Below the pieces are notes generated by a model that worked only from the letters and a program-made list of their open reading frames with translations, had not been told where the DNA came from and searched no databases. A program made the position numbers and the translations under genes. Positions 1 to 64,000 of a stretch of 64,000 bases of DNA are shown piece by piece (the first letter of the stretch is position 1; the number at the start of each line of letters is the position of its first letter). The DNA comes from an uncultured virus (IMG/VR IMGVR_UViG_3300025154_000091) (taxonomy: Duplodnaviria > Heunggongvirae > Uroviricota > Caudoviricetes), in the IMG/VR virus record IMGVR_UViG_3300025154_000091. One strand, given 5' to 3'.

Positions 1-92
1 TTGCGCTCTCTAGATAGGAACTCATCTACTACGACCTCAACCATTCCGAAGAAGTCTTCACACAATTGCTTACGCTCAGTATCAGTTAAGAT
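1..92 (-). CDS. 5' fragment of the sigma-like gene (copy 1, cut by window edge)
   Basis: Identical to the 5' end of 61863-62393. Confidence 0.8.
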   Translation of the reverse strand, partial: MLTDTERKQLCEDFFGMVEVVVDEFLSRER

Positions 93-106
93 ATTGTTCT
101 CCTTAT
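1..106. repeat. Exact 106-bp copy of 62302-62407 (genome wrap-around point; unit length about 62,301 bp)
   Basis: Direct comparison; first mismatch at 107 vs 62408. Confidence 0.95.
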
Positions 107-232
107 CTTTAGCACTACATATTCAGAAGATCCTGTCACAAAGTCGAACAAGTAATTATCTAATGGTTGATGACAGAAGTGCAGGTTGCCATAACCTCGT
201 CCCCCAACATATAAGATATAATAGAATCTCAT
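86..232 (-). CDS. LK[VI]RR-tail mini-protein, 48 aa
   Basis: Hand translation: MRFYYILYVGG...EYVVLKIRRTIS*. Confidence 0.75.
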   Translation of the reverse strand: MRFYYILYVGGRGYGNLHFCHQPLDNYLFDFVTGSSEYVVLKIRRTIS

Positions 233-267
233 ATCACTAAGGCTCTATTTATTATATAGTATCTCAT
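229..267 (-). CDS. 12-codon coupling mini-ORF containing a promoter-like motif
   Basis: MRYYIINRALVI*; overlaps both neighbours; conserved at 62679-62717. Confidence 0.45.
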   Translation of the reverse strand: MRYYIINRALVI

Positions 268-428
268 CACCTGATCTTCCTCCGAATCTTTAAGATAGTA
301 TAGTACTCCCTGCCCTCAGGAGATTTAATATAATGAGTAGTTGCAGTATCACTATAACGAGACCTATATAGGAACATATTCCTAGACCTATATCTATTTG
401 CTTCAGTCTCTAACAAGAATAAGTTCAT
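267..428 (-). CDS. LK[VI]RR-tail mini-protein, 53 aa
   Basis: MNLFLLETE...YYTILKIRRKIR*; TGATG overlap with polymerase stop. Confidence 0.75.
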   Translation of the reverse strand: MNLFLLETEANRYRSRNMFLYRSRYSDTATTHYIKSPEGREYYTILKIRRKIR

Positions 429-1513
429 CAATGTACCTCCGCCCAAGTCATTCCTACTTTCACATCAGCATCTATAGGGGTGATCAAGTTCAACTGACCT
501 TGTACCATATTGGCCCCAAGCTTAATGATTCTCGATGCTTCCTCCACATGTTCTGGCAGGCACCTGTAAGCATATTCATCATGATAGCAGATCATTTGTC
601 TACAGTATAAGCCAGTACCTTCAAGCATCTTATTAACATTAATACCCCACATCTTAAAGATGAGAGCAGCAGTCCCTTGGATGGCAGAGTTTAGCAACTT
701 ATACTCCTGCCTAATCTGCATCTTCCTTCCATCAAGACCTACAATGTACTTGTTCTTTTTATAAAACTTAGTTAGATAGTCTACAAGCATCTTCACTCCG
801 AGATTACCAGACCAAAAAGCTTCAATATATACTTCAGCTTCTTCTATTGTGCATCCAAGAATACTAGCAAGCTTAGGTGCTCTAGCTCCAAAATAGATTG
901 CATATTGAAAAGATTTCGCAATGTTTCTAGTACTTTGGATGAGGTCGGCATTGTATTGATGGAGATCTGGAACAGAACTTATCACCCTCCAATATTCTCC
1001 ACCATCAAACAGAGATGCCCAATGTGCTGTGACTCTCGCCTCTATCTGAGCAAGATCAGCACCTATCATTATGTATGGTGGCCACACCCTAAAGAGTGAT
1101 CTCATCTCCTTGCCATAGATAACTTTAGGATCAGCTTTCGGTACGTTGCAAATCGCACCAGCGTGGGTTGTCCTACCTGTTGGAGTATTACATGGCATCC
1201 CTTCAGCAGCTACACGTCCATCATCTCTTACCTTAGAGAGTATACCTTTATTCTCAGGATCCTTTAGGTTCTCGATGGTTCTCCTTCTATGTACAAGGAC
1301 ATTCCTTCGAGCAACTAACTGACCTAGCTCACCTTTGATAGAGCTGAACGAATCTTCAGTGAGCTTCGGGGATGTTATCTCTTTAGTCTTCTTATTTATA
1401 TTCCACTGAGTAGGGATCCACCCTACTGATAATAGGTAGGATTTCACTTGTTCGTGGCTATTCAAATTCAGGTCCATGTATTTTATCTTACAATACGGAC
1501 CTCTTATATTCAT
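428..1513 (-). CDS. DNA polymerase family A, polymerase half of a split gene
   Basis: Motif A ADLAQIEAR, motif B AKSFQYAIYFG, motif C YHDE. Confidence 0.95.
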   Translation of the reverse strand: MNIRGPYCKIKYMDLNLNSHEQVKSYLLSVGWIPTQWNINKKTKEITSPKLTEDSFSSIKGELGQLVARRNVLVHRRRTIENLKDPENKGILSKVRDDGRVAAEGMPCNTPTGRTTHAGAICNVPKADPKVIYGKEMRSLFRVWPPYIMIGADLAQIEARVTAHWASLFDGGEYWRVISSVPDLHQYNADLIQSTRNIAKSFQYAIYFGARAPKLASILGCTIEEAEVYIEAFWSGNLGVKMLVDYLTKFYKKNKYIVGLDGRKMQIRQEYKLLNSAIQGTAALIFKMWGINVNKMLEGTGLYCRQMICYHDEYAYRCLPEHVEEASRIIKLGANMVQGQLNLITPIDADVKVGMTWAEVH

Positions 1514-2074
1514 TTATAATTCTCCTTTTAAATATGAAATTGCAGATGATAAAATAGAAACATCATCATTAGCATGACCTACTAGTACGTTGCAGCTATT
1601 ACATAACAACCCTCTTATATTACCAGTTAGATGGTTGTGATCAACAGAATAACTTCTTTTAGAGTCTGGAGTAACTAGATCACATCCACAAATAGCACAA
1701 GCACCTTTCTGAATATTCATCATATCCATTAGAGAATCTTCAGATACTTTATACTTATACTTTAATTGGTAAAATCTCGACCTATCTGGGTTATCCTTCT
1801 GATATCTTGCATTTGCTTCGCTCAGCTTCTCTTTATTAGATTGATAATAAAGTTTATGATACTCCTTAGACTTATCCTTATTACTCTCCCTATACTCTTT
1901 TTGCTTTTCTAAAACCTTACCCTTGTTAGCATCCCTATAAGCCTTCACCCTCATAGATTCACAAGATTTGCATATACATCTCAGAACATCTTTCCCACTC
2001 TTACTAGTACGGACTTTATAAAAGTACTCTGATGTTGCTGGATATTCTGATCCACATTTTTTACAAATCTTCAT
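1514..2074 (-). CDS. Endonuclease VII-type HNH homing endonuclease
   Basis: CAICG...VDHNHLTGNIRGLLCNSCN; N-terminal CxxC. Confidence 0.9.
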   Translation of the reverse strand: MKICKKCGSEYPATSEYFYKVRTSKSGKDVLRCICKSCESMRVKAYRDANKGKVLEKQKEYRESNKDKSKEYHKLYYQSNKEKLSEANARYQKDNPDRSRFYQLKYKYKVSEDSLMDMMNIQKGACAICGCDLVTPDSKRSYSVDHNHLTGNIRGLLCNSCNVLVGHANDDVSILSSAISYLKGEL

Positions 2075-2115
2075 AGGTCCCTCCTAAAGGTTAAGTATGT
2101 AATGTTTTATTACAA

Positions 2116-2131
2116 CTATAACCTATATAGT
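2116..2131 (-). promoter_or_regulatory. ACTATATAG-N3-ATAG promoter-like motif upstream of the HNH gene
   Basis: ACTATATAGGTTATAG on the minus strand; motif recurs upstream of other transcription units. Confidence 0.65.
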
Positions 2132-2173
2132 TAATAGGAACCTGATCTTACAGTATGGTCCACGAATATTCAT
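2123..2173 (-). pseudogene. Remnant of the original polymerase 5' end
   Basis: MNIRGPYCKIRFLLTI*; first 10 aa identical to the polymerase start at 1513 but with different codons. Confidence 0.85.
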
Positions 2174-2176
2174 GTC

Positions 2177-2308
2177 CTATAAGGTTCTCCTCACTTTAAG
2201 TAGAGTATTCTGTCCGGGGAACTGTGCAGCTACACTACAATTAATAAGGATGGCTCTATTATGAGTAGTCCCACAACCATGCCACCCATGTCTTATGTAA
2301 AACTTCAT
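2177..2308 (-). CDS. LK[VI]RR-tail mini-protein, 43 aa
   Basis: MKFYIRHGW...HNRAIL...TLLKVRRTL*. Confidence 0.75.
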   Translation of the reverse strand: MKFYIRHGWHGCGTTHNRAILINCSVAAQFPGQNTLLKVRRTL

Positions 2309-2442
2309 AGTGTTCTCCTCACCTTTAGCACTATAAAGGTTGTTGGTGGAGGTCCGTAGTGTTCTGATAGAACTACAATGTTTCTATTGTATCTGCACAA
2401 CTGACTACAATTTTTCCACCCCTCTATACAGAAGACTCTCAT
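2305..2442 (-). CDS. LK[VI]RR-tail mini-protein, 45 aa
   Basis: MRVFCIEGW...YNRNIVV...IVLKVRRTL*. Confidence 0.75.
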   Translation of the reverse strand: MRVFCIEGWKNCSQLCRYNRNIVVLSEHYGPPPTTFIVLKVRRTL

Positions 2443-2627
2443 AGCACCCTCTTAACCTTTAAAAAGACTCCATGATTAGGGGCTATGATCCAACTCTTAT
2501 AGTGTACACTACTCTGATCTTCTGGGAACTTAATAAAATCCCTACAGAAACTATACATCCACTCGTTCCACCCAGGAGATAGTTCATGGGTTGTTTGATT
2601 ATACTCAAGTATCAGTAAGTATCTCAA
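2439..2627 (-). CDS. LK[VI]RR-tail mini-protein, 62 aa
   Basis: MRYLLILEY...VFLKVKRVL*. Confidence 0.75.
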   Translation of the reverse strand: MRYLLILEYNQTTHELSPGWNEWMYSFCRDFIKFPEDQSSVHYKSWIIAPNHGVFLKVKRVL

Positions 2628-3342
2628 TAGTTTCCTCTTGGTTTATCCACTTCTTTGTGGCTTCATTATATGTACCATCCTTCTTGTAAGGCATGGTCCC
2701 TTTCTCAATATTACCTACACCCTTTATCCTCATAGGACTCTTATCATACAAGAGTGTATCTAGCTGAGCAATTTCTTCATCTAATCGTACCAATAGATCC
2801 TTAGCCAACTCAACATCTATATCTACACCTTCAAGTTCTTGAGCTGCTCGATACATTGCGAAGTCTTGCTCTATGTTAAGAGATGTAATCCAGTTCCAAC
2901 TCTGGCAATACCTTTCTACTAGGTACTCATACACCATCTCGTTTATCTCAACATCCTCTGAGCACCTATGTAACATATCCTCAGAGAACACTGACCAATC
3001 CTCATGCACTGGTTTACTTCTTTTGAACTGCTCTCCGTATGACTCAAGAGAATGGCCCCCGAATCGTTCGGGGTTAAATAGCTTGGACATACAGAGAGTG
3101 TCCTTAAGCTTCTTGTGTGTGAATGTTGGATATAACTTCTTGATAGCAGGTATATCAAATCCACAGATGTTGTGACCGACCAACTGGTCAGCACTACTGA
3201 GAAGCTGAAGGCCCTCCTCTATTTGGTGTGGTCTAAACTTGAAGACCTCTTTGGTCTTGAGATCTTTAGCTACAATACAATGGATCTTAGTTATCTCATA
3301 GAGAAATCCATCTCCCTCAATATCTACAACGTATCTAGACAA
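2605..3342 (-). CDS. 3'-5' exonuclease half of the split family A DNA polymerase
   Basis: ExoI DIEGD, ExoII GHNICGFD, ExoIII-like RCSEDV; resembles T7 gp5 N-terminus. Confidence 0.92.
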   Translation of the reverse strand: MSRYVVDIEGDGFLYEITKIHCIVAKDLKTKEVFKFRPHQIEEGLQLLSSADQLVGHNICGFDIPAIKKLYPTFTHKKLKDTLCMSKLFNPERFGGHSLESYGEQFKRSKPVHEDWSVFSEDMLHRCSEDVEINEMVYEYLVERYCQSWNWITSLNIEQDFAMYRAAQELEGVDIDVELAKDLLVRLDEEIAQLDTLLYDKSPMRIKGVGNIEKGTMPYKKDGTYNEATKKWINQEETIEILTDT

Positions 3343-3472
3343 CTCTCCTCACCTTTAGGACTGTGTATCCCTCCTCAAATGTTAGGTAACAAACAGGACA
3401 ACCCATAGTAATTAATCTTCTACTATAACCAACACTCCAATAACAGTTCCCACGTAGAATCACGAAGACCAC
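3335..3472 (-). CDS. LK[VI]RR-tail mini-protein, 45 aa (GTG start)
   Basis: MVFVILRGNCYW...YSRRLI...YTVLKVRRVV*. Confidence 0.7.
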   Translation of the reverse strand: MVFVILRGNCYWSVGYSRRLITMGCPVCYLTFEEGYTVLKVRRVV

Positions 3473-3618
3473 TATAACTTTCTCTTAACCTTTAGGTTGA
3501 TATAATAGTCTCTCGGCTTTTTAAATTGTCTCCATATATAGAAACTTCTCACAGACATATCTCCCCATCCATAACCATCAGAATCTCTAACAGCTATAGT
3601 AAACCACACATGATTCAT
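3472..3618 (-). CDS. LK[VI]RR-tail mini-protein, 48 aa
   Basis: MNHVWFTIAV...YYINLKVKRKL*. Confidence 0.75.
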   Translation of the reverse strand: MNHVWFTIAVRDSDGYGWGDMSVRSFYIWRQFKKPRDYYINLKVKRKL

Positions 3619-3821
3619 CAATACCTCCGTCTTATTTGTAGCTCCTTCATCACCTCATAGGGAGGACTACTCACTCTCCAACGAATCTCATGAGGAGCGC
3701 CCTCCATCTCTATGGCTCTGAGATAATCAGCATTAGTATCCTCTCTAGCAAATGATCTACGATTTCTAGAGGTCCAGTCTGGGTCTTCCCTAAATGAATT
3801 ATACACAACCCAGAATCTCAC
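3618..3821 (-). CDS. LK[VI]RR-tail mini-protein, 67 aa
   Basis: MRFWVVY...RNRRSF...KELQIRRRY*. Confidence 0.75.
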   Translation of the reverse strand: MRFWVVYNSFREDPDWTSRNRRSFAREDTNADYLRAIEMEGAPHEIRWRVSSPPYEVMKELQIRRRY

Positions 3822-4048
3822 AGCCTCCTCCTGACCTTTAGAGGAATGAGTCTATCTACTGGTATGAATCCTCCAGATATCACGCCAAACCATTGAGCAA
3901 AGGATAACCCGTAGAATTCTGGAAGTTCATCATCTTCTTCATAGTCCTCTAGATCTATCTCCTCTTCCCTATAGAACATACCAGTCCATTGTTCAGGTGT
4001 AGCTGTTCCATAATCTAGATGCTTACATAGATAGAAATTAAAACTCAT
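3818..4048 (-). CDS. LK[VI]RR-tail mini-protein, 76 aa
   Basis: MSFNFYL...IPLKVRRRL*. Confidence 0.75.
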   Translation of the reverse strand: MSFNFYLCKHLDYGTATPEQWTGMFYREEEIDLEDYEEDDELPEFYGLSFAQWFGVISGGFIPVDRLIPLKVRRRL

Positions 4049-4730
4049 CGTCGCAGAACTCCTCCTCTAGTACTCCAGTTTCTTTATTGTACCTGAGAGG
4101 TATGTGTCCTGTGTTACCACCAAGTCTATCCTTTATGATAGATAATTTACACTTGTTCCTCTCTTCCAATGTGTCAGCTAACTGGTCCCTTGAGAGACCC
4201 CATAGCGCAGTAGAGTACTTCCATTGTGCCCTACTTCCCGAGAACTGTGAGCCATATACTTCACCACCAGCGCCATGATCCTTACCACTTGGAGGATTGT
4301 TCAAATGGTTAACACTAAAGAACGTCAGCCCCTGTTCTGTTCTAAACCTTCTCATATCTCTCATAACTTGACCCAAAGCCTGATTAGCTTCGGATGCAGA
4401 TAAATGTTCCACCAATGCAGATAGTGGGTCAATAAAGAATACCCTAATACCTTTGCTTGCAAAGTATCGTATATTATCCTTGACCTCTTCCCAATCCTCT
4501 GTGAGACCATCATAAAAATGAACCTTCCCCTCTAGAGTTGCACCTATTCTCCTCGCCTCCTCTACATCATAATCACAATCAGGTTTATGAATAGGCTTGT
4601 TCATTATGCTACCTATAATCTTCTTTAACGAGCCCTTTGCCTTCTCCTCTATATCAAATACAGCTATCTGCCTGTTGTGTACAAACATTAAGTGTTGTTG
4701 TATCTGCCTTACTAGTGTACTTTTACCTGT
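4038..4730 (-). CDS. Primase-helicase exon 2 (DnaB-like helicase)
   Basis: Starts TGKST (end of Walker A); FFIDPL Walker B; FSGS and KDR motifs. Confidence 0.92.
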   Translation of the reverse strand, partial: TGKSTLVRQIQQHLMFVHNRQIAVFDIEEKAKGSLKKIIGSIMNKPIHKPDCDYDVEEARRIGATLEGKVHFYDGLTEDWEEVKDNIRYFASKGIRVFFIDPLSALVEHLSASEANQALGQVMRDMRRFRTEQGLTFFSVNHLNNPPSGKDHGAGGEVYGSQFSGSRAQWKYSTALWGLSRDQLADTLEERNKCKLSIIKDRLGGNTGHIPLRYNKETGVLEEEFCDDEF

Positions 4731-4873
4731 CGCTTGTGTTACGAGGTGCTCGATTCCAGTACCTCTCTCAAGGTTTCCCATGAGGCCAGACTATATCATC
4801 ATCTTTTCAGATGCTATGCGCTTCGGACCCTCTTGAGTCCTACTCCCTCTCGGGATAGTCGTTACACTTTCTA

Positions 4874-5407
4874 CTACCAAGAGTATCTACAACTAACATG
4901 CTTCCAGTTTTGGCGACTTCTTATAGAGTAGTATAGCCTGAATGATAAGTTATCAAAAGAGCTAAGGATATCATCTCTACTAACCCTATTAGATATCATA
5001 TAACAAATAGTATCAACATCTTCATCTGACAGGATAGAGTTATGAATCTTCTCTCCCAGGCGAATGCGCCTTTTTCCAGATGCAAATGAATGGCATACAT
5101 TCTCGGAAGGAGATACCCACTCCAGATTAGAGACACAATTGTTACTCTTTATACCGTCTATATGATTAACCTCTTCTCCATCTTTATGATCTGGATTAAA
5201 AGTTTCCATAACTAATCTGTGAACTTGGTAAGTCTTCCTAAACCTCTCATACTGAAGAACAACAAGAAGATAACCCTGTCTATGCCTTCCAGGTTTTAAG
5301 ATTCTAGGAACTTTACCGTGGGTTGACATAACTCTTCCACAATCTGACACTTGATACTGGCCACCAAAACCTTCAACATGTTTCCAAACTTCCATCGCAT
5401 CCTCCAT
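4874..5407 (-). CDS. Intron-encoded NUMOD4-HNH homing endonuclease
   Basis: EVWKHVEGF..YQVSDCGRV; VHRLV; VNHIDGIKSNNCVSNLEW. Confidence 0.92.
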   Translation of the reverse strand: MEDAMEVWKHVEGFGGQYQVSDCGRVMSTHGKVPRILKPGRHRQGYLLVVLQYERFRKTYQVHRLVMETFNPDHKDGEEVNHIDGIKSNNCVSNLEWVSPSENVCHSFASGKRRIRLGEKIHNSILSDEDVDTICYMISNRVSRDDILSSFDNLSFRLYYSIRSRQNWKHVSCRYSW

Positions 5408-5431
5408 AGATTATTTGTATATTACATTCAA

Positions 5432-5447
5432 CTATAATCTATATAGT
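5432..5447 (-). promoter_or_regulatory. ACTATATAG-N3-ATAG motif upstream of the intron ORF
   Basis: ACTATATAGATTATAG on the minus strand. Confidence 0.65.
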
Positions 5448-5562
5448 ATGCAACACTCTGATAATAGCTTAGCTCGGGATTACCATATCTTAATAGACTT
5501 AGGCTTCCCCCGAATTCACATAGTTATTCGATGAGCATCTCTACTCAAAGGGGCAATTATTT

Positions 5563-6492
5563 ACCCGGTCCAGCCCCTATCGAAATTATCTCTCCCTCTT
5601 CCTCCTTAAGGCCATACGTAAGCTTCGTAAGCCTCTCGAAGGGGTAAGATAAGCCCCACGGTACAGGTTTAATAGTATCGGCCAAGATATCACCAACAGA
5701 TATAATATTACTAGGGCGATATTCTCTAGCGTTGAAGTAAGCATTGATGAACTCCTTCTGCTTTCCTTTTACCAGCATATCACTGGCATCTTTCTCTGAG
5801 ATGACCAAGACCCTAGCCCTCTCACCTATGACAGGTGCATACTTAGCCACAGCTGCCCTGCCAGCAGCATCCATATCAGTAGCTATGATGATCTCTTCAA
5901 AGCCCTTGAAGAACTCAAGACTCTCAGTCACCGTAGCCAATGAGGACTCTTCACCCCTTGGTAGAGACACTACTGCAGGTTCTACCTCAGGATACCTAGT
6001 CTTCAGCATCTCATAGGCAGCACACATATCCTCTTCACCACCAGTGATAAGCAACTTTCTGCCTGACATAGGACAGCAGTGGAGTCCTGATAGGTCAGGT
6101 ATCTTTCCCTTCTGATCTCCAATACTTGAGAACTTCTTAGGAAGTAATCTCTTCTTATATCCTATAAACTTACCGAGATGTGTCTCAGGGTAATAGATAG
6201 CTACTGGAATACCTGTAGCCTCTGAGAGCTCTGTTCGGATCTTGAAGTGCTTGTGTGTCTCAGCACTTATAAGTCTATCGGGATTACCGTAATAAGGAAG
6301 TCTCTTTATTTCATCTAACTCCATCTCTCCTCCTTTTTTAGAAGCATCACACACCTCTCCGTCTCTTTCGTAGTATGGCGGATGATAAGGTTTTAGGCAA
6401 GCTCGTGTTACACCGTCCTTCATCAACCATAGATGATCAGAGTTTGAATCATGCCCGAGCGACTTGCACACCTTACATTGGCGATTCTTCAT
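5563..6492 (-). CDS. Primase-helicase exon 1 (zinc-binding and TOPRIM primase)
   Basis: N-terminal CxxC; ITGGEED and DMD TOPRIM motifs; ends GAGPG; spliced product is 540 aa. Confidence 0.92.
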
Positions 6493-7120
6493 ATGATTCT
6501 AAATACTTAGCAGCTTTAAGGCAAGTATCTTTAGAGTCTTTTAAGAACCCTATACCAGAGTTACAAGAATTACATAACAACCCTCGGGCTTTTCCAGTAT
6601 CATGGTCATGATCTATAGAGAACATCTCAATAAAATCTATACCACATATAGCACATTTCCCAACTTGAGAGATTATCATACCCTCTAACCACTGCTCAGT
6701 TATATTGAAGATCTTAAGTCTTCGTCTGAAGAGAGTTTCGTTATAACCTTCGGTATCCTTATAAACTTCTCTATTTCTTATTATTCTATCTGCATTCTCC
6801 TCTCTATAGATAGCATCGTACTCTCTTTTCCATTCTGCATAACCCGGATCTGATCTCTTCCAAAGCGCATGGCACCTCTTAGAACAAAACTTAGTTCTTT
6901 TAGGCCCCCTCTTAGCTTGTATAATAACCTCTCCGCATATACAACATATCCCAGTTGTAGCTGTCTTGCATAGATCAACACACTCCTCTCCAGCTCTTCT
7001 AGCAAACTCAGCCTCTTCCTTATCCTTATAAGATCCTAGGTTTACACAACCAAGACTAGATCTTATAGATGCTTTCCATCTTTTCCTTGCCTTATTCCAA
7101 TGAACACCTTTCATAATCAT
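6473..7120 (-). CDS. AP2-like plus endonuclease VII-type homing endonuclease
   Basis: KGVHWNKARKRWKA..NLGSY (AP2-like); IDHDHDTGKARGLLCNSCN. Confidence 0.88.
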   Translation of the reverse strand: MIMKGVHWNKARKRWKASIRSSLGCVNLGSYKDKEEAEFARRAGEECVDLCKTATTGICCICGEVIIQAKRGPKRTKFCSKRCHALWKRSDPGYAEWKREYDAIYREENADRIIRNREVYKDTEGYNETLFRRRLKIFNITEQWLEGMIISQVGKCAICGIDFIEMFSIDHDHDTGKARGLLCNSCNSGIGFLKDSKDTCLKAAKYLESYEESPM

Positions 7121-7156
7121 CCCTCCAGTTGAATTAAAATATAAACCCTTTAAGGT

Positions 7157-7165
7157 CTATATAGT
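7157..7165 (-). promoter_or_regulatory. ACTATATAG motif upstream of the endonuclease
   Basis: About 37 nt before the ORF start. Confidence 0.55.
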
Positions 7166-7200
7166 AATCACGTTACTGAAGTGATAATTATGGGGATCAG

Positions 7201-7245
7201 TTACACATAAAACCCCCTACATTCAGGACATGGGCGATTGCTCAC
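7201..7245 (-). pseudogene. Remnant of the original primase 5' end
   Basis: GTG start, SNRPCPECRG.. vs current MKNRQCKVCK; SD AAGGAG upstream. Confidence 0.7.
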
Positions 7246-7370
7246 ATTCTCCTTTTCACCTTCAATAGTATAATATTAGGACTACCATTTATTCCACAAA
7301 TAATCCTCCTATGATTTCCAGGATACCACCAATCATTTAAGTGGTTGGATAAGATACAAAACCTTTTCAT
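7242..7370 (-). CDS. LK[VI]RR-tail mini-protein, 42 aa
   Basis: MKRFCIL...WWYPGNHRRII...ILLKVKRRM*. Confidence 0.75.
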   Translation of the reverse strand: MKRFCILSNHLNDWWYPGNHRRIICGINGSPNIILLKVKRRM

Positions 7371-7503
7371 AGATGCCTCTTAATCTTCAGTGCAATATAT
7401 GCCCTACACCCTTAGCCGAATAGCACCTCAACCTTCTACTCAAAGAGGGTGGCCAGTATCCGTCAGCTATATCCTTAGCCCATAGTATACAGAAGTTACT
7501 CAT
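7367..7503 (-). pseudogene. Frameshifted LK[VI]RR-tail mini-gene
   Basis: MSNFCILW...SLSRRL, tail YIALKIKRHL* in another frame; 137 nt, one short of in-frame. Confidence 0.65.
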
Positions 7504-7646
7504 AGCCTTTTCTTAACCTTTAGGATTATATACATCTCAGTATCATCTGAGATATCTTCATCCTCAAACATCACCCTTCTGGAATTGTAACTCCACCACC
7601 TTGAAGGTTCTGATGCACACCAAAGGATGATGAATAGGCCACTCAA
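7500..7646 (-). CDS. LK[VI]RR-tail mini-protein, 48 aa (TTG start)
   Basis: MSGLFIILW...WWSYNSRRV...YIILKVKKRL*. Confidence 0.7.
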   Translation of the reverse strand: MSGLFIILWCASEPSRWWSYNSRRVMFEDEDISDDTEMYIILKVKKRL

Positions 7647-7822
7647 TATTTTCTCCTAATCTTCAATTCCTTTAGGTTCAAGTACAGGCTAGAGTGTCTT
7701 CCATCACAGAAGGAATATGCAATATCACTTCTCGGATCCTTCTGCCTATAGATCATACCAATCTTCCAGTACAAGAAATCCATTAGATCAGCACCTGCTC
7801 TGTACCTATAGAAGAATCTCAC
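7643..7822 (-). CDS. LK[VI]RR-tail mini-protein, 59 aa (GTG start; track ORF over-extended)
   Basis: MRFFYRY...KELKIRRKY*. Confidence 0.75.
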   Translation of the reverse strand: MRFFYRYRAGADLMDFLYWKIGMIYRQKDPRSDIAYSFCDGRHSSLYLNLKELKIRRKY

Positions 7823-7956
7823 AACTTCCTCCTCACTCTTAAGCGTGTACAGTTTGTAATGTCTGTACTCACCTGGTATGCCCTCATGCATCTGCACATT
7901 GACCAATGCCAGAAGGTAGGGTTATCTACATCATATAAGAAGCAATAGATTCTCAT
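7819..7956 (-). CDS. LK[VI]RR-tail mini-protein, 45 aa
   Basis: MRIYCFLYDVDNPTFW...TRLRVRRKL*. Confidence 0.75.
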   Translation of the reverse strand: MRIYCFLYDVDNPTFWHWSMCRCMRAYQVSTDITNCTRLRVRRKL

Positions 7957-8102
7957 AGCTTCCTCTTAATTTTTAAGAACCTATAGTAGCATCTATCACC
8001 ATCTCTTATAGTCGTAGTATGTTTATAATGATCTATGTTTCTTCCATAGAACGGTATCCAAAATTCAGGATCATCTATATCATACAATAAAACAAAGTAC
8101 AT
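7953..8102 (-). CDS. LK[VI]RR-tail mini-protein, 49 aa
   Basis: MYFVLLYDIDDPEFW...YRFLKIKRKL*. Confidence 0.75.
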   Translation of the reverse strand: MYFVLLYDIDDPEFWIPFYGRNIDHYKHTTTIRDGDRCYYRFLKIKRKL

Positions 8103-8132
8103 ATCATCTCCACCACTATAGGTTCTTAAGAA

Positions 8133-9068
8133 CTACTGCATCATATGTCCGTAGTCTCTCCAGGCCTCGTCATCAGCCTGAGTTTTGAGTGCATCTTCGG
8201 CTGCCTTACGAGACGCTGCTGCTTTCTCCCTATTAGCTTTGATATTAGCTTGGGTGAGGTAAGCTGAGATAGTTGTCTTCATCCTGTTATGGATAGCTCC
8301 AGCTCTCTCAAGAGACTTCTTACACTCATCACAAATGATCATGATATCATCAGCAACACTATCCTGATAGGCGTTCATATCTTTGATCTGATGAATCTCA
8401 TTACAGTACTCACACATATCCCTTGTGTAGGCATTGATACTCCATGCTTCGGTGTTCGGCCTAGTTACTGGGAGGTTGTATGTCTTAGCACTATAGTACG
8501 TTTGAGTATAAATCTTCCTCTCCTTATAGGAATCATTACTCATCCAACACTTACCAAACCAATGACCCTTCTTCTTATTGTATATAGTGCAGTCACCCTC
8601 GATGTTCAGTACTGCCAGCTTAGATGCACCTATGAAGTCTTCAATAAGAGTAGCAATTGCACTATTGTACATCCACCCTTCAGGAAGTTCCCGAAGGATC
8701 TCTCTCTTGAACATTCGAGTATCTGACATAGTAGCATGTCGGGATACGCCACTGATGATTCCATTATGAATAAACACAGTATCATTATCAATCATAAAGG
8801 GATGACAGTTCGCTATATCCTTCTCACCATGAGTCTTGATTCTGAAGTGGATCAAGAATGGAGAGTCATTAGCTATACGAGTAGCCCTAAGGTACTGCTT
8901 ATAGAACGGCTCGAAGCTCATGTTCTTGTACATCTTAATCCTTTTGACACCCAGATGATCAGTATTAATATACGCAAAGCCAGCCCCATCCGGGTTATTA
9001 TTAAAGCAATTCTTCAACAGAACTTCACTAAGGAGCTCACCAGCTGGCTTGAAAATCGCAATACACAT
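8133..9068 (-). CDS. Class II (Ntn) glutamine amidotransferase
   Basis: N-terminal MC, NPDGAG, HFRIKTHG, NCHPF, HNG, SDT. Confidence 0.9.
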   Translation of the reverse strand: MCIAIFKPAGELLSEVLLKNCFNNNPDGAGFAYINTDHLGVKRIKMYKNMSFEPFYKQYLRATRIANDSPFLIHFRIKTHGEKDIANCHPFMIDNDTVFIHNGIISGVSRHATMSDTRMFKREILRELPEGWMYNSAIATLIEDFIGASKLAVLNIEGDCTIYNKKKGHWFGKCWMSNDSYKERKIYTQTYYSAKTYNLPVTRPNTEAWSINAYTRDMCEYCNEIHQIKDMNAYQDSVADDIMIICDECKKSLERAGAIHNRMKTTISAYLTQANIKANREKAAASRKAAEDALKTQADDEAWRDYGHMMQ

Positions 9069-9069
9069 A

Positions 9070-9218
9070 TTATATTCTCCTCTTTATCTTTAGCACTTTA
9101 TAGTAACCAACTTCCGGTACACACCTTGAGCAGCAGAGGATGAACCATATATATACTCATCCTCTTCTCCACTCCTGTCTCTAAAAGCAAAGTGTGTATG
9201 ATGTTTAATATCTTCCAT
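9070..9218 (-). pseudogene. Probable frameshifted LK[VI]RR-tail mini-gene
   Basis: Tail YYKVLKIKRRI* is one base out of frame with ATG at 9218 (149 nt). Confidence 0.5.
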
Positions 9219-9232
9219 ACAGTTATAACAGC

Positions 9233-11176
9233 TTATCGTCCATTATACTTCTGGACGAATGAGCTCCCATTAGGATAGATCTTGCTATTGCTCTCAATAA
9301 AATTCTTGAAGGCTGCGAGATCCTTAGAGAGATGGATAGGTACTTCCTTCTGGAAGGTGATCAAGGCATGAAGGAACTCTACCTTACTACGCAGCTCGAA
9401 CTCCTTAGTACAGCCAGCAAACAACCTGAACTCTACTGTGGTCCTGTTGGTCAGGTTGACCATGGCACGACGCTCAGTATTACCAGACTTACTATCCCTC
9501 AGGTGCTTAGAGGGTTTACTCTTCAGCTTAGCACAGTAACCATTGAAGCTACGACCAGCTATGTACGTGGTGAAGGTAGGGTTGGAGTGCAGAAAATTAA
9601 TAACCTTATACAGATGAACCTCAGAGATGAAAGAGTCGCGACCTATATGGATATGAAGGCCACAACTATCACTCTTCCTAATACCTTCAGGAAGAAGAGG
9701 ACCAAGATCCATTTTATGAAAGTACATCAGAGACATCGGTTGAGTGACAACCTCATATCCACTACCACTAATAGATCCATCACTCTTCGCTACAACTACT
9801 GTAGGGTCGTATACAGTGTACATCTCAGCCAATCTCTTATTCATCTTACTACTATCGGATGAGAACGTACATTCATTCTCAAACCCGAAGAAGATATTAC
9901 CACGCTTGATCTCCTTCTCCTTGTTATAGTTGAAGAAGACTCGAGGTTTATGACTATAGTTATAGATACCCATACCACCACACACCCTACAGTTGTGCCT
10001 CTCATCCTTAATCCTACCGCAACTGCTGCAGGAGTTGGTGACGTAAACCTTCTTGCAGATCTCGCACATATCTCCTGATCCAGAGGAGAGGGTGGAACAA
10101 CTGGAGCACTCCTTACCTGAAGCACACCGAGAGCACACTGTATGCACCCTCATAGTTCCTTTCACATACTTCTTAACCTTCGAGACACACTCCTTCTGGC
10201 AGCAATCGCAGGTGAAGAGAGTCTTTGTAGCACAGGAATCACACATAGTGTTCCTAACCATGCTTCCAGAGTCATCCAGATATTCTCGGAGCCTAATATG
10301 TGGGTGCTTGGTGTTACATACCGCGCAAGTCTCGAAAAAATCCCAACAACGAGGACAGTACTTCTTCGGAGATCCCTGATCTGCTGTGTAGCTATAGTTC
10401 TTACCACAATGCTCACACTGTTCGATCTCATAGAGCTTGAAGGCATTCTTCTTAGCCTCGAAGCATTCTTTACATACAGACTGTCCATACTTTCTGAAGA
10501 TACCAGCTCTGCGCATACCCTCAAGAGAATTGGCTGAGATGATATCATCTTTCTTCTTATAAGTGCTGCAACAACCACACAGCTTATAGTTCTTGGTAAG
10601 GCAGGTAGAACATATCTTCCTTCCATTAACATCTTTGATAGCATTGGAGGGCTTCTGAGTTCCACAATCCTCACAGACTGCAAAGTCAGTCATGCAGCTA
10701 CGACAATAGTGATCTCCGTTTCCAGTGTGAGTAGTCTCAGATGCAAGGACTGCATGCTGACAACCAGAACACACCTTCAGAAGTGCATAGCACCTCTCAC
10801 AATACGGACCAATCTCTACCTCAGGATAGTCCTCATTATAAAGGACAACGCGAAAGTTAGGATCGGTGATTTCAGCATGACAATTCAAACAAGGGCAGGG
10901 AGTAGGCATAGTAATAGTTTCCTTTTTGGTTAAGTAAGTGTATTCTCCGGGATAAACGTGCGCATCTGACCCATCAGTTCCGTAACATTGTATAACTTCA
11001 TCATCTTCAAGATTATAATCTTCATCTCCAATACCATCTCTCCAACCGTCGTCGTTCCAACTACACGGAACTATGTTCCTGACAATATCGAATTGGTATG
11101 GTGGGAAGTTGTATTCTCTACCAGATTCACCAACAATCAGTAGTATATCACCAAAATCTGGTATTCTATTACTCAT
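9233..11176 (-). CDS. Putative amidoligase (COOH-NH2 ligase family) with a long CxxC array
   Basis: FGFENE, DGS..GYEVVT, CGLHIH, TVEFR; about 18 CxxC motifs upstream. Confidence 0.85.
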   Translation of the reverse strand: MSNRIPDFGDILLIVGESGREYNFPPYQFDIVRNIVPCSWNDDGWRDGIGDEDYNLEDDEVIQCYGTDGSDAHVYPGEYTYLTKKETITMPTPCPCLNCHAEITDPNFRVVLYNEDYPEVEIGPYCERCYALLKVCSGCQHAVLASETTHTGNGDHYCRSCMTDFAVCEDCGTQKPSNAIKDVNGRKICSTCLTKNYKLCGCCSTYKKKDDIISANSLEGMRRAGIFRKYGQSVCKECFEAKKNAFKLYEIEQCEHCGKNYSYTADQGSPKKYCPRCWDFFETCAVCNTKHPHIRLREYLDDSGSMVRNTMCDSCATKTLFTCDCCQKECVSKVKKYVKGTMRVHTVCSRCASGKECSSCSTLSSGSGDMCEICKKVYVTNSCSSCGRIKDERHNCRVCGGMGIYNYSHKPRVFFNYNKEKEIKRGNIFFGFENECTFSSDSSKMNKRLAEMYTVYDPTVVVAKSDGSISGSGYEVVTQPMSLMYFHKMDLGPLLPEGIRKSDSCGLHIHIGRDSFISEVHLYKVINFLHSNPTFTTYIAGRSFNGYCAKLKSKPSKHLRDSKSGNTERRAMVNLTNRTTVEFRLFAGCTKEFELRSKVEFLHALITFQKEVPIHLSKDLAAFKNFIESNSKIYPNGSSFVQKYNGR

Positions 11177-11430
11177 AGCACTCTCTTCACTCTCAGAGGT
11201 ACAGCATTATCTAATCGGATTCCCCAATCGTTGTGGTGATCTGAGTATCTGTAGAATCTTAATGAAGATACTGTGCTAAAACCAGGATCATCATCATCGT
11301 CATCACCGTCTAATAGATGAGATACACACACCCTTCTAGATAAATAATTCATATTCTCCACCCATCTCCACCCTTCAGGGGAATTAGGAGTAGATGAATC
11401 TTTCCAAGAGTTTCCTATGAAATAGAGCAC
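11173..11430 (-). CDS. LK[VI]RR-tail mini-protein, 85 aa
   Basis: YFIGNSW...MNYLSRRV...VPLRVKRVL*. Confidence 0.75.
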   Translation of the reverse strand: MLYFIGNSWKDSSTPNSPEGWRWVENMNYLSRRVCVSHLLDGDDDDDDPGFSTVSSLRFYRYSDHHNDWGIRLDNAVPLRVKRVL

Positions 11431-11431
11431 A

Positions 11432-11647
11432 TTATATTCTCCTTTTTAATGTTAGTTTTATAGCCTCATCATAATCTACATACCAACTTCCGGATCTCTC
11501 TACAAAAGACACCTCATCGTCATCTAGATAAGAGGTAATCACCGCTCTAGATAAGTGGTTCATGCCTGGAACCCAAGATCCATCGTAGTAATCTTCTAGA
11601 TCTTCCTCCAACCAAGAGTTCCCTATAAAGTACTGTAGGGAGTCCAT
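11432..11647 (-). CDS. LK[VI]RR-tail mini-protein, 71 aa; tandem paralog of the previous gene
   Basis: YFIGNSW...MNHLSRAV...IKLTLKRRI*. Confidence 0.75.
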   Translation of the reverse strand: MDSLQYFIGNSWLEEDLEDYYDGSWVPGMNHLSRAVITSYLDDDEVSFVERSGSWYVDYDEAIKLTLKRRI

Positions 11648-11832
11648 TATATTACCCTAGCCAATCTCCCCTTATCGGTGATTACTTCAAGAGGTTTAAA
11701 CATCTTAGCCACCTCACCGTTCATGAGGTACAAAGTTCCAACAACCCCATGTACAGAGTCCTCAGCCGCTTTAGTCACTCCCTCCATCATTCTCTCAGAG
11801 AAGATGAGGTACTCACAGTACTTACAGTTCAT
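11647..11832 (-). CDS. Hypothetical protein
   Basis: Coupled ORF lacking the family tail. Confidence 0.6.
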   Translation of the reverse strand: MNCKYCEYLIFSERMMEGVTKAAEDSVHGVVGTLYLMNGEVAKMFKPLEVITDKGRLARVI

Positions 11833-12011
11833 ATCTTTCTCCTAATTTTAAAGATTGTAAATCTATAATGTTCATAGCCCTCTGATTGTACCCTACCACT
11901 GGACAGATTAAGTAATCTCACCTCTCTACTATCTCTATCGATAAAACAGAAGCTTTGTATGTAGAGATCTAAGGTGGTATCACAACTTTTGTATATAGCT
12001 ATCTCCCACAC
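11829..12011 (-). CDS. LK[VI]RR-tail mini-protein, 60 aa
   Basis: MWEIAIYK...FCFI...TIFKIRRKI*. Confidence 0.75.
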   Translation of the reverse strand: MWEIAIYKSCDTTLDLYIQSFCFIDRDSREVRLLNLSSGRVQSEGYEHYRFTIFKIRRKI

Positions 12012-12220
12012 TATAGCACCCTCCTCACCTTCAAGATAGTATAGAATCTCTCTAGGTCGTTCTTAGGGTAGATAGTATAATTCTCACAGAGTCCGTCTCC
12101 CGGTCTGTGATCCCAACCTCTAAACTTAACTTCAAGATTTTCTGTATTTATTAGGCAGAAGCACCCTTCAAAAATGTCAGTAGTACCTACACCGTACTTG
12201 TAGAAACTGAACTCCCACAT
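12011..12220 (-). CDS. LK[VI]RR-tail mini-protein, 69 aa; tandem paralog of the previous gene
   Basis: MWEFSFYK...FCLI...TILKVRRVL*. Confidence 0.75.
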   Translation of the reverse strand: MWEFSFYKYGVGTTDIFEGCFCLINTENLEVKFRGWDHRPGDGLCENYTIYPKNDLERFYTILKVRRVL

Positions 12221-60961: not shown

Positions 60962-61225
60962 TCATGGTTTCCTTATCTCTTCCCAATGCATCTGGCATCG
61001 ATGTGCATCGTATACATTGTTGTATCTATACCTACCATCAGGAGATACCCACCATATACCATCCTTCTTCCAGCCTCTGTCAGTTATTAGATTCCATGAC
61101 CTGACATATGAAGATTCATATTCACCTATATCTTCTTTAGGAATATTAACCACCTCCCCTGAGTCATCGTATTTAACCCACCAGTCAAACGTTGATGTGC
61201 CTTCTCTAATCTTCTGCTCAGTCAT
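60962..61225 (-). CDS. Hypothetical protein
   Basis: Coupled ORF. Confidence 0.55.
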   Translation of the reverse strand: MTEQKIREGTSTFDWWVKYDDSGEVVNIPKEDIGEYESSYVRSWNLITDRGWKKDGIWWVSPDGRYRYNNVYDAHRCQMHWEEIRKP

Positions 61226-61371
61226 CTAGCTCCTCTGTATCATCATCTTGGAATATAGCCACAGCTTCATCATAGCCCTCCCAACTATCTACACCACAAA
61301 TAAGTAGGCAAGACAAGAAATTCTCATGAGCGACGAGCCCGTCGTATTCGTCTTTTGATATTGTAACAGTA

Positions 61372-61866
61372 TCAGAACTCTTCGTTGTCTTCATCATTGC
61401 TGCCAGTACCTTCAGTCTCATCATTGAACTCATCAGTTCCATCAACAACATCGAACTCATCAGAGTCCTGATCTCCACCACCTGCATAGGCTACAAGGTC
61501 TACGATCTGAATGGCCTGAAGGTCAGCACTCAAACCCTTCTTACCTTTATACTCCCAAGCAAACGGAGCGAACTGTACATTAACAATACTACCATTCCCG
61601 ATAATACCATTGAAGGTATTCTTACCAGCATCTACTACTCGGGGTGGTGGGTTCTCACCTACTACAGCACCTGCTTTCTTCTTATCTACATTCCGTTTGA
61701 ACTTGTACTCATACACATCATCATCGTTCCGCTTCACCTTCAGCCCTGCAGCCTTTAGCTTCTTAGCTTCATCATCTGACAGCAGAAGAGTAACCCTCCA
61801 ACAAGGATCAAACTTAGTATCTGCTTGCTTGGTATAGGCCCACATTGCAATTCCAGTAGTCTTCAT
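61372..61866 (-). CDS. Single-stranded DNA-binding protein (gp2.5-like)
   Basis: IGNGS.V.V, LQAIQI, acidic tail ending in F. Confidence 0.85.
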   Translation of the reverse strand: MKTTGIAMWAYTKQADTKFDPCWRVTLLLSDDEAKKLKAAGLKVKRNDDDVYEYKFKRNVDKKKAGAVVGENPPPRVVDAGKNTFNGIIGNGSIVNVQFAPFAWEYKGKKGLSADLQAIQIVDLVAYAGGGDQDSDEFDVVDGTDEFNDETEGTGSNDEDNEEF

Positions 61867-62393
61867 ATTGTAACTCCCATCTTTAATTGAATTTCTTTGA
61901 TGATACGCTTCTTCATATAACCAGCTTTCCTAATAGTAACCTTAGCAGCCTTGGCCACCTCAGCCTTAGGATCACTATGGATAATCAAACCATAGTATAT
62001 AATTCTATCCAGTTTATCTTTAGGTGCTAGACCCTCTATGATACCATCGTAATCATCATTCTCCTCATAGTTATGTTCTGTTCTTGGTTCGTCATCAGTA
62101 TCTACAAGACTATCTATAGGTACCTCGATCTCTTCTCTGCGCTGCAGCTTCTTGATGTGAGCTATCATCTCATAGCGGATACTATTAGATGCATAAGTAT
62201 TAAACTGAAAGCCCCTAGCAGGATCGTACTTCAATGAAGACTTCCTCAAGGCTATCATACCTATCCCCATCAGATCTTCTCGGTGCCCTTGCCACCTCCT
62301 GTTGCGCTCTCTAGATAGGAACTCATCTACTACGACCTCAACCATTCCGAAGAAGTCTTCACACAATTGCTTACGCTCAGTATCAGTTAAGAT
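61863..62393 (-). CDS. Sigma-70-like phage transcription factor (probable ATC start)
   Basis: Region 2: EDLMGIGMIAL..YDPARGFQFNTYA..IR; C-terminal HTH. Confidence 0.8.
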   Translation of the reverse strand: MLTDTERKQLCEDFFGMVEVVVDEFLSRERNRRWQGHREDLMGIGMIALRKSSLKYDPARGFQFNTYASNSIRYEMIAHIKKLQRREEIEVPIDSLVDTDDEPRTEHNYEENDDYDGIIEGLAPKDKLDRIIYYGLIIHSDPKAEVAKAAKVTIRKAGYMKKRIIKEIQLKMGVTI

Positions 62394-62536
62394 ATTGTTC
62401 TCCTTATTTTTAGCATTGTATACCTCTTATGATTCTTCTTAACAAAGATCTGTAGATGGTTGTCTAGACGTTGATGACAGAATTTCATATTGTGCCTGTT
62501 CTCTCCACCTATGTATAAGATGTAACAGAATCTCAT
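62387..62536 (-). CDS. LK[VI]RR-tail mini-protein, 49 aa (ortholog of 86-232)
   Basis: MRFCYILYIGG...YTMLKIRRTIS*. Confidence 0.75.
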   Translation of the reverse strand: MRFCYILYIGGENRHNMKFCHQRLDNHLQIFVKKNHKRYTMLKIRRTIS

Positions 62537-62682
62537 ATCACCCTCTTAATCTTTAGTATCTTATAAGTACTAGGTCTCCCTAATACATAATCTACAAGAC
62601 GACCACCATCTAGACTATCTACAAGGATGACTCTGTTATCCCTACCCTCATTACTTAGGTAGATAATAAAATACTTTCTCAT
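62533..62682 (-). CDS. LK[VI]RR-tail mini-protein, 49 aa, absent from copy 1
   Basis: MRKYFIIY...DNRVIL...KILKIKRVI*. Confidence 0.75.
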   Translation of the reverse strand: MRKYFIIYLSNEGRDNRVILVDSLDGGRLVDYVLGRPSTYKILKIKRVI

Positions 62683-62717
62683 ATCATTAAGACTCTATTT
62701 ATTATATAGTAACTCAT
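62679..62717 (-). CDS. 12-codon coupling mini-ORF (copy 2)
   Basis: MSYYIINRVLMI*. Confidence 0.45.
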   Translation of the reverse strand: MSYYIINRVLMI

Positions 62718-62878
62718 CACTCGATTGTCCTCCGAATCTTTAAGGTAGTATAGAACATTCTTCCAGACTTTGAGTCTAGGTAAGGGCCTGTAGTCCTATC
62801 ATCTGGGAGAATATATAGAGGAACCACTGACCTACCTGTTCGTTCAACACCCTCTAACATGATTAAGAATCGTCTCAT
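62717..62878 (-). CDS. LK[VI]RR-tail mini-protein, 53 aa (ortholog of 267-428)
   Basis: MRRFLIMLE...YTTLKIRRTIE*. Confidence 0.75.
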   Translation of the reverse strand: MRRFLIMLEGVERTGRSVVPLYILPDDRTTGPYLDSKSGRMFYTTLKIRRTIE

Positions 62879-63360
62879 CAATGCACCTCTGCCCAATTTT
62901 TTCCAGAAAGTATTCCAGCTATCGCTCCTGATGGGTATCCGAAAAAGACTAAACACTTTCTCCTATACCCTATTGATATTAAAAGTTTTATATCCCTTAC
63001 CTCATCTTCTGTCAGTAAAGCTCTAGAGTTTCTAACACCCTTAGCAGATCTATTACCTAAGCTATAAGAGTGTTTTATATTCTCACTATGAGATACCCAC
63101 CTAAGATTATCTACACTATTGTTCAATCGAACACCATCAATATGATCTACATCTGAGAAATGATATGGGTTTGGGAGATAAACCTCTGCCACTAATCTGT
63201 GTACAGCCTTACACACCCTACCCCTATCGGTGTTTATATTTACAGTAAGATAACCTCTCCCATTATCGGAAGATTTTATTAACTTACCAAACTTATTAAA
63301 CACCTCTCCATCTTTTGTTACATGATACGAGTAATAGTTTGAGATCATAGCACACCACAC
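62878..63360 (-). CDS. HNH homing endonuclease ending in the captured polymerase C-terminus
   Basis: VHRLVAE, VDHIDGVRLNNSVDNLRW; ends WAEVH*. Confidence 0.9.
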   Translation of the reverse strand: MWCAMISNYYSYHVTKDGEVFNKFGKLIKSSDNGRGYLTVNINTDRGRVCKAVHRLVAEVYLPNPYHFSDVDHIDGVRLNNSVDNLRWVSHSENIKHSYSLGNRSAKGVRNSRALLTEDEVRDIKLLISIGYRRKCLVFFGYPSGAIAGILSGKNWAEVH

Positions 63361-63399
63361 TTGAGTTTAGATTATAATACATTAGAGTATCCTTACGAA

Positions 63400-63415
63400 C
63401 TATAATCTATATAGT
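63400..63415 (-). promoter_or_regulatory. ACTATATAG-N3-ATAG motif upstream of the HNH gene
   Basis: ACTATATAGATTATAG, same as 5432-5447. Confidence 0.65.
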
Positions 63416-63422
63416 GTGATGA

Positions 63423-64000
63423 TTAGTGAACGTCGGCCCAGGTCATCCCTATTTTCACATCAGCATCTATAGGTACTATAAGATTGAGCTGACCTTGGAC
63501 CATGTTAGCACCAAGCTTTATAATCTTTGAAGCTTCTTCAGCATGCTCAGGTAAGCACCTATAAGCGGCCTCATCGTGGTATTCCAGCATCTGCCTACAA
63601 TAAATACCAGTACCCTCAAGCATTTTATTAGTATTTATTAACCACATCTTAAAGATTAGAGCTGCTGTAGATTGTATAGCTGTATTAAGAAGCTTATACT
63701 CTTGTCTAACTTGAATCTTCCTACCATCAAGCCCGACTATATACTTATTCTTCTTGAAGAACTTGGACAAGTAGTCGACAACCATCTTTACTCCTAGATT
63801 GCCAGACCAAAATGAGTCTATATATTCTTCAGCTTTCTCTTCTGAACAACCAAGAATCCTTGAGAGCTTAGGAGCTCTGGCTCCGTAGAATATTGCATAC
63901 TGAAAACTCTTCGCAACATCCCTAGTATTCTGTATAAGATCGGCATTATATTGGTGAAGATCAGGGACCGAATTGATAACATTCCAGTAGGCACCACCAT
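63423..64000 (-). CDS. Second, divergent DNA polymerase A copy (3' part; open to the window edge)
   Basis: Frame stays open beyond the track ORF; last 120 aa differ at 18 positions from copy 1. Confidence 0.92.
   Translation of the reverse strand, partial: GGAYWNVINSVPDLHQYNADLIQNTRDVAKSFQYAIFYGARAPKLSRILGCSEEKAEEYIDSFWSGNLGVKMVVDYLSKFFKKNKYIVGLDGRKIQVRQEYKLLNTAIQSTAALIFKMWLINTNKMLEGTGIYCRQMLEYHDEAAYRCLPEHAEEASKIIKLGANMVQGQLNLIVPIDADVKIGMTWADVH

Follow-up and report, generated by a model that had tools for sequence, protein, structure and literature searches.

The window analysed here is a 64,000-nt stretch of DNA from an uncultured virus of the Caudoviricetes (IMG/VR IMGVR_UViG_3300025154_000091); the records used here are groundwater metagenomes. 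Near its start (copy 1), a polymerase gene (428..1513, minus strand; Pfam DNA_pol_A) ends in the tail W-A-E-V-H-stop at 428-445, to whose stop a mini-gene of 53 aa (mini-gene 1; 267..428, minus strand) is coupled. At its far end (copy 2), the 3' part of a family A DNA polymerase gene (63423..64000, minus strand; Pfam DNA_pol_A) ends in W-A-D-V-H-stop (63423-63440) and is followed by a 74-nt spacer, a free-standing I-HmuI-like HNH homing-endonuclease gene of 156 aa (62878..63348, minus strand; Pfam HNH_3, E 4e-11) and a second mini-gene 1, also of 53 aa (62717..62878, minus strand), coupled to the HNH stop. The HNH start is likely the ATG at 63348, giving 156 aa as in P0335, and not the in-frame GTG at 63360. 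The last codons of the HNH gene (62878..62895, minus strand) read W-A-E-V-H-stop in frame, and both WAEVH ends overlap the start of their mini-gene (TGA-TG). A six-frame search of the window gave exactly three instances of W-x-[DE]-x-H-stop (428-445, 62878-62895 and 63423-63440, all minus), and the coordinates and codons of the three gene ends quoted in the initial annotation were borne out. The polymerase is split in copy 1 (window 428-3342), its parts at 2605-3342 and 428-1513 having mini-genes in between; such a split is common among relatives, and an EndoVII gene of copy 1 (1514-2074) that lies in it is absent from copy 2 and from the related phage L089.

The initial annotation had read the two copies as parts of one genome, which was not upheld; that copy 1 represents the empty state of the locus was supported. 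Window positions 1-106 are identical over 106 nt to 62302..62407 (no strand assigned), a flank common to both strains that forms the edge of an assembly bubble. An independent contig, L009, was identical to copy 1 across 4126 nt, its continuation into window 62407-59733 had a single mismatch over 2676 nt, and copy 2 was identical to contig L001 across 1236 nt. Read depths of the empty allele, the occupied allele and the shared flank were 27.9, 8.5 and 36.5 in run X1 and 80.5, 15.9 and 85.9 in run X3, and just one 151-nt piece was present in runs X5 and X6; the runs used for depth, X1 and X3 included, may be the source of the window. Because of the flank identity, the continuity of L009 and the additive depths, the window is a single full turn around a phage genome of roughly 62.3 kb, followed by the allele of a second strain. 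Both alleles are natural, yet they do not sit in one genome. Tandem phages or a true duplication were rejected, since depths sum in the bubble and each allele has its own contig. A run X3 contig leaves copy 2 at the polymerase stop (window 63423) and continues with a Shine-Dalgarno sequence (SD) and a start codon of its own, a hint that a third empty allele, this one uncoupled, may exist.

The only PDB match of the HNH protein was I-HmuI (1u3e), both by profile (E 2.7e-18) and by fold (E 1.5e-7; model pLDDT 84); the nuclease domain with its intact motif and I-HmuI fold identifies the product as an I-HmuI-like enzyme. No match to the group I intron model RF00028 was obtained up to E 1 within 61000-64000, and an insertion in the helicase gene of the same window does match the group I intron model. 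The HNH gene is not contained in an intron or intein, neighbours an essential gene and is present or absent among relatives, as befits a free-standing homing endonuclease. The helicase insertion splits a primase-helicase gene at Walker A (window 4038-6492), carries a NUMOD4-HNH gene (4874-5407) and matches the group I intron model weakly; L089 and L355 are uninterrupted there.

A third phage, L089, repeats the occupied layout, with a polymerase ending in WADVH, a 74-nt spacer, an HNH gene ending in WGDVH and a coupled mini-gene. Its HNH gene is 74% identical in DNA, and its stop-to-stop cassette is 545 nt, the same as in the window. The cassette is thus placed between polymerase and mini-gene 1 in two phages. 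Occupied loci for which DNA was found numbered two, and close empty loci one; L172 is a second empty, coupled relative. In L014, an HNH gene of the same family but with a native tail lies directly behind an intact polymerase, a precursor-like state, although the HNH tree does not place L014 among the close relatives. HNH-like genes without a polymerase-like tail were also seen directly behind the phage polymerases of L125, L235 and L251, as in L014.

The HNH tail matches the copy 1 polymerase tail at 16/18 nt and that of its own polymerase at 13/18; across both occupied alleles, HNH tails match the empty tail at 16/18 and 15/18 nt and their own polymerase tails at 13/18. The host 3' end is therefore duplicated around the endonuclease, with the downstream piece nearer the empty allele, over a span of only 18 nt. 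The tryptophan that begins this piece, W156, was invariant across 22 aligned HNH proteins, and all 19 of the 19 aligned relatives (42-57% identity) extend at least 8 residues beyond it, typically as W-x-x-I-S-x-x-Y-x-F. Of 120 distinct full-length HNH homologues, a W lay close to the C-terminus in 104 (a later W was picked in about 7 rows of this count). One homologue search gave mainly multi-domain HNH proteins. W-x-x-[VI] was present in 69/104 and a stop at W+4 in 17/104, 13 of them outside the lineage (e.g. WKEVA, WVEVK). The ending W-x-x-x-H-stop was confined to four rows that represent three proteins of one clade (the window protein, P0001 and P0002/L089) and occurred in 0/100 others, while 100/120 polymerase hits end in [WY]xxxH. 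The initial annotation had named HNH proteins ending in WAEVH at unrelated loci as a refutation; the check did not refute the capture, the ending being restricted to the clade among the homologues compared, and its caveat that W-x-x-V is common in the family was partly right. The proposal that the HNH has a polymerase-derived C-terminus stood, supported by the family tails and the clade-restricted ending. Judged by these comparisons, capture of the polymerase tail is real, the HNH having kept its own W and had its family tail replaced from W on. The three-protein clade had support of 100/100 and 100 in two trees built with tails trimmed and not rooted on evidence, the second made without three distant rows; the fusion has a single origin.

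The polymerases P0091 and P0092 end in GKNWAEVH, identical to the last eight HNH residues, and the HNH relatives P0019 and P0023 have GKNW, so the G-K-N-W codons (62893..62904, minus strand), common to the HNH family and related polymerases, appear to have offered microhomology at the probable junction.

The mini-genes on either side of the comparison share 36% identity. When 55 candidate mini-ORFs taken from four records were compared, each of the two was the other's best hit (score 69.5, with 40-42 for the next), which supports the orthology originally claimed for them; copy 1, copy 2 and L089 all carry orthologues of mini-gene 1. A ribosome-binding site for mini-gene 1 is predicted inside the captured tail (62884-62889), as it is in the copy 1 polymerase tail (435-440). 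With what we take to be the anti-SD sequence, the predicted duplex energy was -10.9 kcal/mol for the empty tail and -9.5 (window) and -8.6 kcal/mol for the HNH tails; those of the occupied polymerase tails were weaker, at -2.4 (copy 2) and -4.5 kcal/mol. Over 74 polymerase tails, which are non-independent, the association of SD with coupling was a weak trend (7/15 vs. 12/59, p 0.05-0.06), and L172 is coupled without an SD. The copied last five polymerase codons probably keep the next gene translated. About 20 paralogous mini-genes of 40-76 aa occupy window 86-12220 and 62387-62878 (minus strand); they have ends of the L-K-[IV]-[KR]-R type, are mostly stop-start coupled with last codons that often spell the SD of the next gene, and occur in sets that differ strongly between strains.

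Upstream of the HNH gene, a promoter-like motif, TCR-N11-ACTATATA, was found at 63408..63429 (minus strand). The window holds 10 matches (at 253, 2124, 5440, 7158, 8581, 14228, 18077, 42496, 62703 and 63408) vs. 0.18 expected, and the motif stands before all four endonuclease-like genes of the window. Among related genomes it was recovered at 8/14 sites in G003, 3/3 in G005, 2/4 in G002 and 0/1 in G004. We infer that it acts as a promoter, and a sigma-like protein with a sigma-70 region 2, encoded at 61863-62366, is a candidate for its reader. In both occupied alleles the TCA of the motif (63427-63429 in the window) sits in the last two codons of the polymerase (Val and His in copy 2); since TCA is present at that junction in 29/74 polymerase tails, selection is not needed and pre-adaptation would suffice. 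The 74-nt spacer is predicted to fold into an RNA hairpin (63353..63421, minus strand) over the predicted ribosome-binding site of the HNH gene, with a folding energy of -24 kcal/mol (z -4.0; 0/200 shuffles as stable). Between copy 2 and L089, the only two sequences compared, one A-U to G-C compensatory pair was present in the main stem. For a shorter transcript, the predicted folding energy changed from -36 to -7, and the SD was barely freed (unpaired 0.32 to 0.38-0.40).

Taken together, the observations are probably best explained by a free-standing homing cassette of the I-HmuI-like HNH type that sits at the 3' end of a phage family A polymerase gene and has an 18-nt duplication of the gene end. 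The donor would have had an intact polymerase with the HNH gene immediately after it, and a recombination event in the shared G-K-N-W codons would have joined the HNH gene to the last polymerase codons and downstream mini-gene of the recipient; a crossover there between an L014-like donor and another polymerase end would yield the layout seen. For mini-gene 1, the captured tail would preserve both the stop-start overlap and the ribosome-binding site. The donor polymerase tail would supply the upstream half of the HNH promoter, and the hairpin may silence read-through translation, as in T4 homing endonucleases. The enzyme would then nick empty alleles in motif C, some 156 nt upstream of the stop, and the HNH gene would spread together with a long stretch of the donor's polymerase sequence.

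An alternative that we consider unlikely is a one-off illegitimate recombination in a tail and mini-gene region prone to it, the HNH gene being a passenger that no longer homes here. At L176:1935-2006, where there is no HNH, a 23-aa ORF consists of the start of a sigma-like gene fused through 8 shared nt to the last 14 codons of the polymerase; here a polymerase tail was captured through microhomology with no HNH involved, which shows that the junction type occurs in these phages and also supports the origin proposed above. The accident would also agree with the single origin of the fusion and with the position of the copy 1/copy 2 exchange boundary, some 470 nt past the tail, but a mere passenger would fit poorly with an intact reading frame and HNH residues invariant between proteins 76% identical, with a promoter motif and hairpin that are retained, the latter with its compensatory change, and with the presence of the cassette in polymerase alleles merely 80% identical.

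Scans of the collections recovered the same lineage. The duplicated-tail pattern, tested for a gap of 510-540 nt only, was found at 5 viral loci, two belonging to this lineage and the other three being copies of a single chance match, and at 17 genome loci with no HNH in the matched frames; no further lineage with a tail fusion was found within the tested gap range. The tail-plus-promoter pattern returned the same 2 loci, and a tail profile run over all loci returned 4 distinct pairs (L001, L089, L176 and the cellular polA of L382). In L382 and L387, short repeats of the final codons of a cellular polA gene come after that gene, with no HNH in the matched frames. Leftover tails sought behind four other downstream HNH-like genes gave at best 12-14/20 nt, a weak test in which the window cassette itself reached just 13/20. 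The metagenome scan yielded no additional occupied or close empty allele.

The initial annotation had proposed that the HNH cuts and inserts at the last codons of the polymerase, whose end was locally recoded and immune; we consider this decidedly improbable. None of the four tail codons (0/4) that encode the same residue in copy 1 and copy 2 is identical, as against 139/277 in codons 1-346, the D-V-H codons are common to both occupied alleles, and P0065, a polymerase 95% identical to that of copy 2, ends in WAEVH, as an empty sister allele might. Set against this, the copy 1 and copy 2 polymerases are 76% identical with divergence spread evenly along the 1086-nt gene, and 158/356 six-codon windows between them match at 13/18 or worse, as divergent as the tail, so a locally recoded end was not borne out. 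The co-conversion gradient expected near the tail was absent as well: divergence is uniform over the gene rather than sharply confined to a replaced 3' part, and the divergent block spans the entire 8-kb copy-2 contig, which is 76-92% identical to copy 1 and carries neither its two EndoVII genes nor its helicase insertion. WADVH also terminates the polymerases P0066, P0075, P0077 and L235. Given this whole-gene divergence without a gradient, the copy 2 polymerase end is most simply taken to be the allele of the donor itself. Among the matches listed, no isolated phage polymerase exceeded 35% identity. Convergence, in which the HNH's own W-x-x-V tail was shortened and selection for a ribosome-binding site gave E-V by chance, could draw on the frequent W-x-x-[VI] and the W+4 stops outside the lineage but is very improbable and largely refuted by a histidine before the stop that recurs in polymerases and in none of the other HNH proteins, by the 16/18 nt match and by the same overlap with an orthologous mini-gene.

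As to where the enzyme of the proposed homing cassette cuts, the polymerase region that we take to be motif C (YHDE; 63568..63590, minus strand) is a candidate resistant target: 23 nt are identical in both occupied alleles, and copy 1 has 10 differences. This patch was rejected as proof of the target, because 216/2000 permutations reach it gene-wide; LEYHDE also occurs in P0065-P0068, be they occupied or empty, which speaks against it. Another patch shared by the occupied alleles, at codon 11 (25/2000 permutations), adjoins the EndoVII gene of copy 1. Two HNH relatives (47-49% identity) lie inside insertions at motif C with junctions of the group I type, the exon ending in T and the insert in G, at a site 156 nt upstream of the polymerase stop; with Rfam, an intron was supported in L255 at a score under gathering, and none was detected in L010. 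Because related intron HNHs sit there, motif C is the likelier target, which further argues against cutting at the last codons. We place the target in motif C at slightly better than even chances, with a site elsewhere plausible though less probable and the tail, which the sequences suggest is less likely than motif C, improbable. The polymerases of L175, L176, L255 and L356 are interrupted after residue 206, which we take to be motif B; in L175 the interruption is a group I intron confirmed by Rfam, and in L356 another HNH-like ORF lies after residue 206.

Replacement of a gene's 3' end is not new in kind, having been described for yeast WHO elements and fungal mORF hybrids. The layout here is that of the WHO elements of Torulaspora and Lachancea, for which the accessible text describes a LAGLIDADG enzyme that cuts at base 668 of FBA1 and a long fragment that serves as a homology arm and does not have to be translated (PMC7282813; 10.64898/2026.08.13.744650). 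Whereas WHO elements have a LAGLIDADG and zinc-finger enzyme at yeast FBA1, the window enzyme is an HNH at a phage polymerase, and its piece is 18 nt and is translated as the nuclease's own C-terminus. In fungal mitochondria, mobile endonuclease ORFs make gene hybrids, among them Allomyces atp6 and Glomus atp6, atp9, cox2 and nad3, and in Glomus atp9 the ORF abuts a 52-nt native end (PMC3630166). As in the window, a foreign C-terminus and endonuclease lie upstream and the native C-terminus, nearer the empty relative, downstream; the hybrids differ in being mitochondrial, with LAGLIDADG or GIY-YIG enzymes and duplications of about 50-280 nt, and the accessible part of their description mentions no leftover piece that both terminates the nuclease and serves a coupled gene (PMC3630166). 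The cassette is likened to WHO elements and fungal hybrids and not classed as a member, because divergence is not confined to the end and a homology-arm role is only a candidate.

Among phages, the free-standing endonucleases of T4 (intronless homing) likewise lie beside an essential gene, and their cut site far from the gene and long co-conversion are both features proposed for the window HNH (PMC2988022; PMC10448857). The T4 late promoter and RBS-sequestering hairpin are resembled by the predicted motif and hairpin here (PMC2988022), whereas a duplicated gene end does not appear in the available portions of the T4 descriptions (PMC2988022; PMC10448857). T4 mobA, according to the accessible text, has a homologous replacement region, but its own gene is split (10.1101/2022.08.31.505936). 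The window HNH is like I-HmuI, I-BasI, I-TslI and I-PfoP3I in sequence, fold (PDB 1u3e) and association with phage family A polymerases; those nicking HNHs are intron-encoded, in the text available, whereas it is free-standing and would nick by analogy (PMC3428280). In the literature consulted, mostly non-subscription papers with supplements aside, no phage nuclease ending in a displaced host terminus was found.

A more elaborate and, taken jointly, doubtful reading is that the cassette is a WHO-type element in minimal phage form, tied into the 18-nt gene end at both of its copies. The incoming tail would be half of the nuclease promoter, and the displaced tail would be the nuclease C-terminus, the ribosome-binding site of the next gene and a reusable right-hand recombination arm. 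Homing into relatives with other downstream genes would then swap nuclease tails (WAEVH vs. WGDVH), and divergence of the repeats (13/18) would suppress precise excision. In the one strain pair that bears on the arm, the exchange boundary lies beyond the tail and mini-gene 1, as noted, is poorly conserved, few alleles being available for this point.

The tail fusion is a very small phage form of the gene-end swapping known from yeasts and fungal mitochondria. For the reading of metagenomic records it is a caution that both alleles in one window can come from an assembly walk through a strain bubble; because empty and occupied strains are found together in one sample, both alleles needed for a cleavage test are available. 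Only six codons are duplicated, those with the signals of the next gene. The locus suggests that neither an intron nor an intein is needed for a selfish nuclease to enter a phage operon with translational coupling, and it takes the gene-end replacement described from yeasts and fungal mitochondria down to its smallest form.
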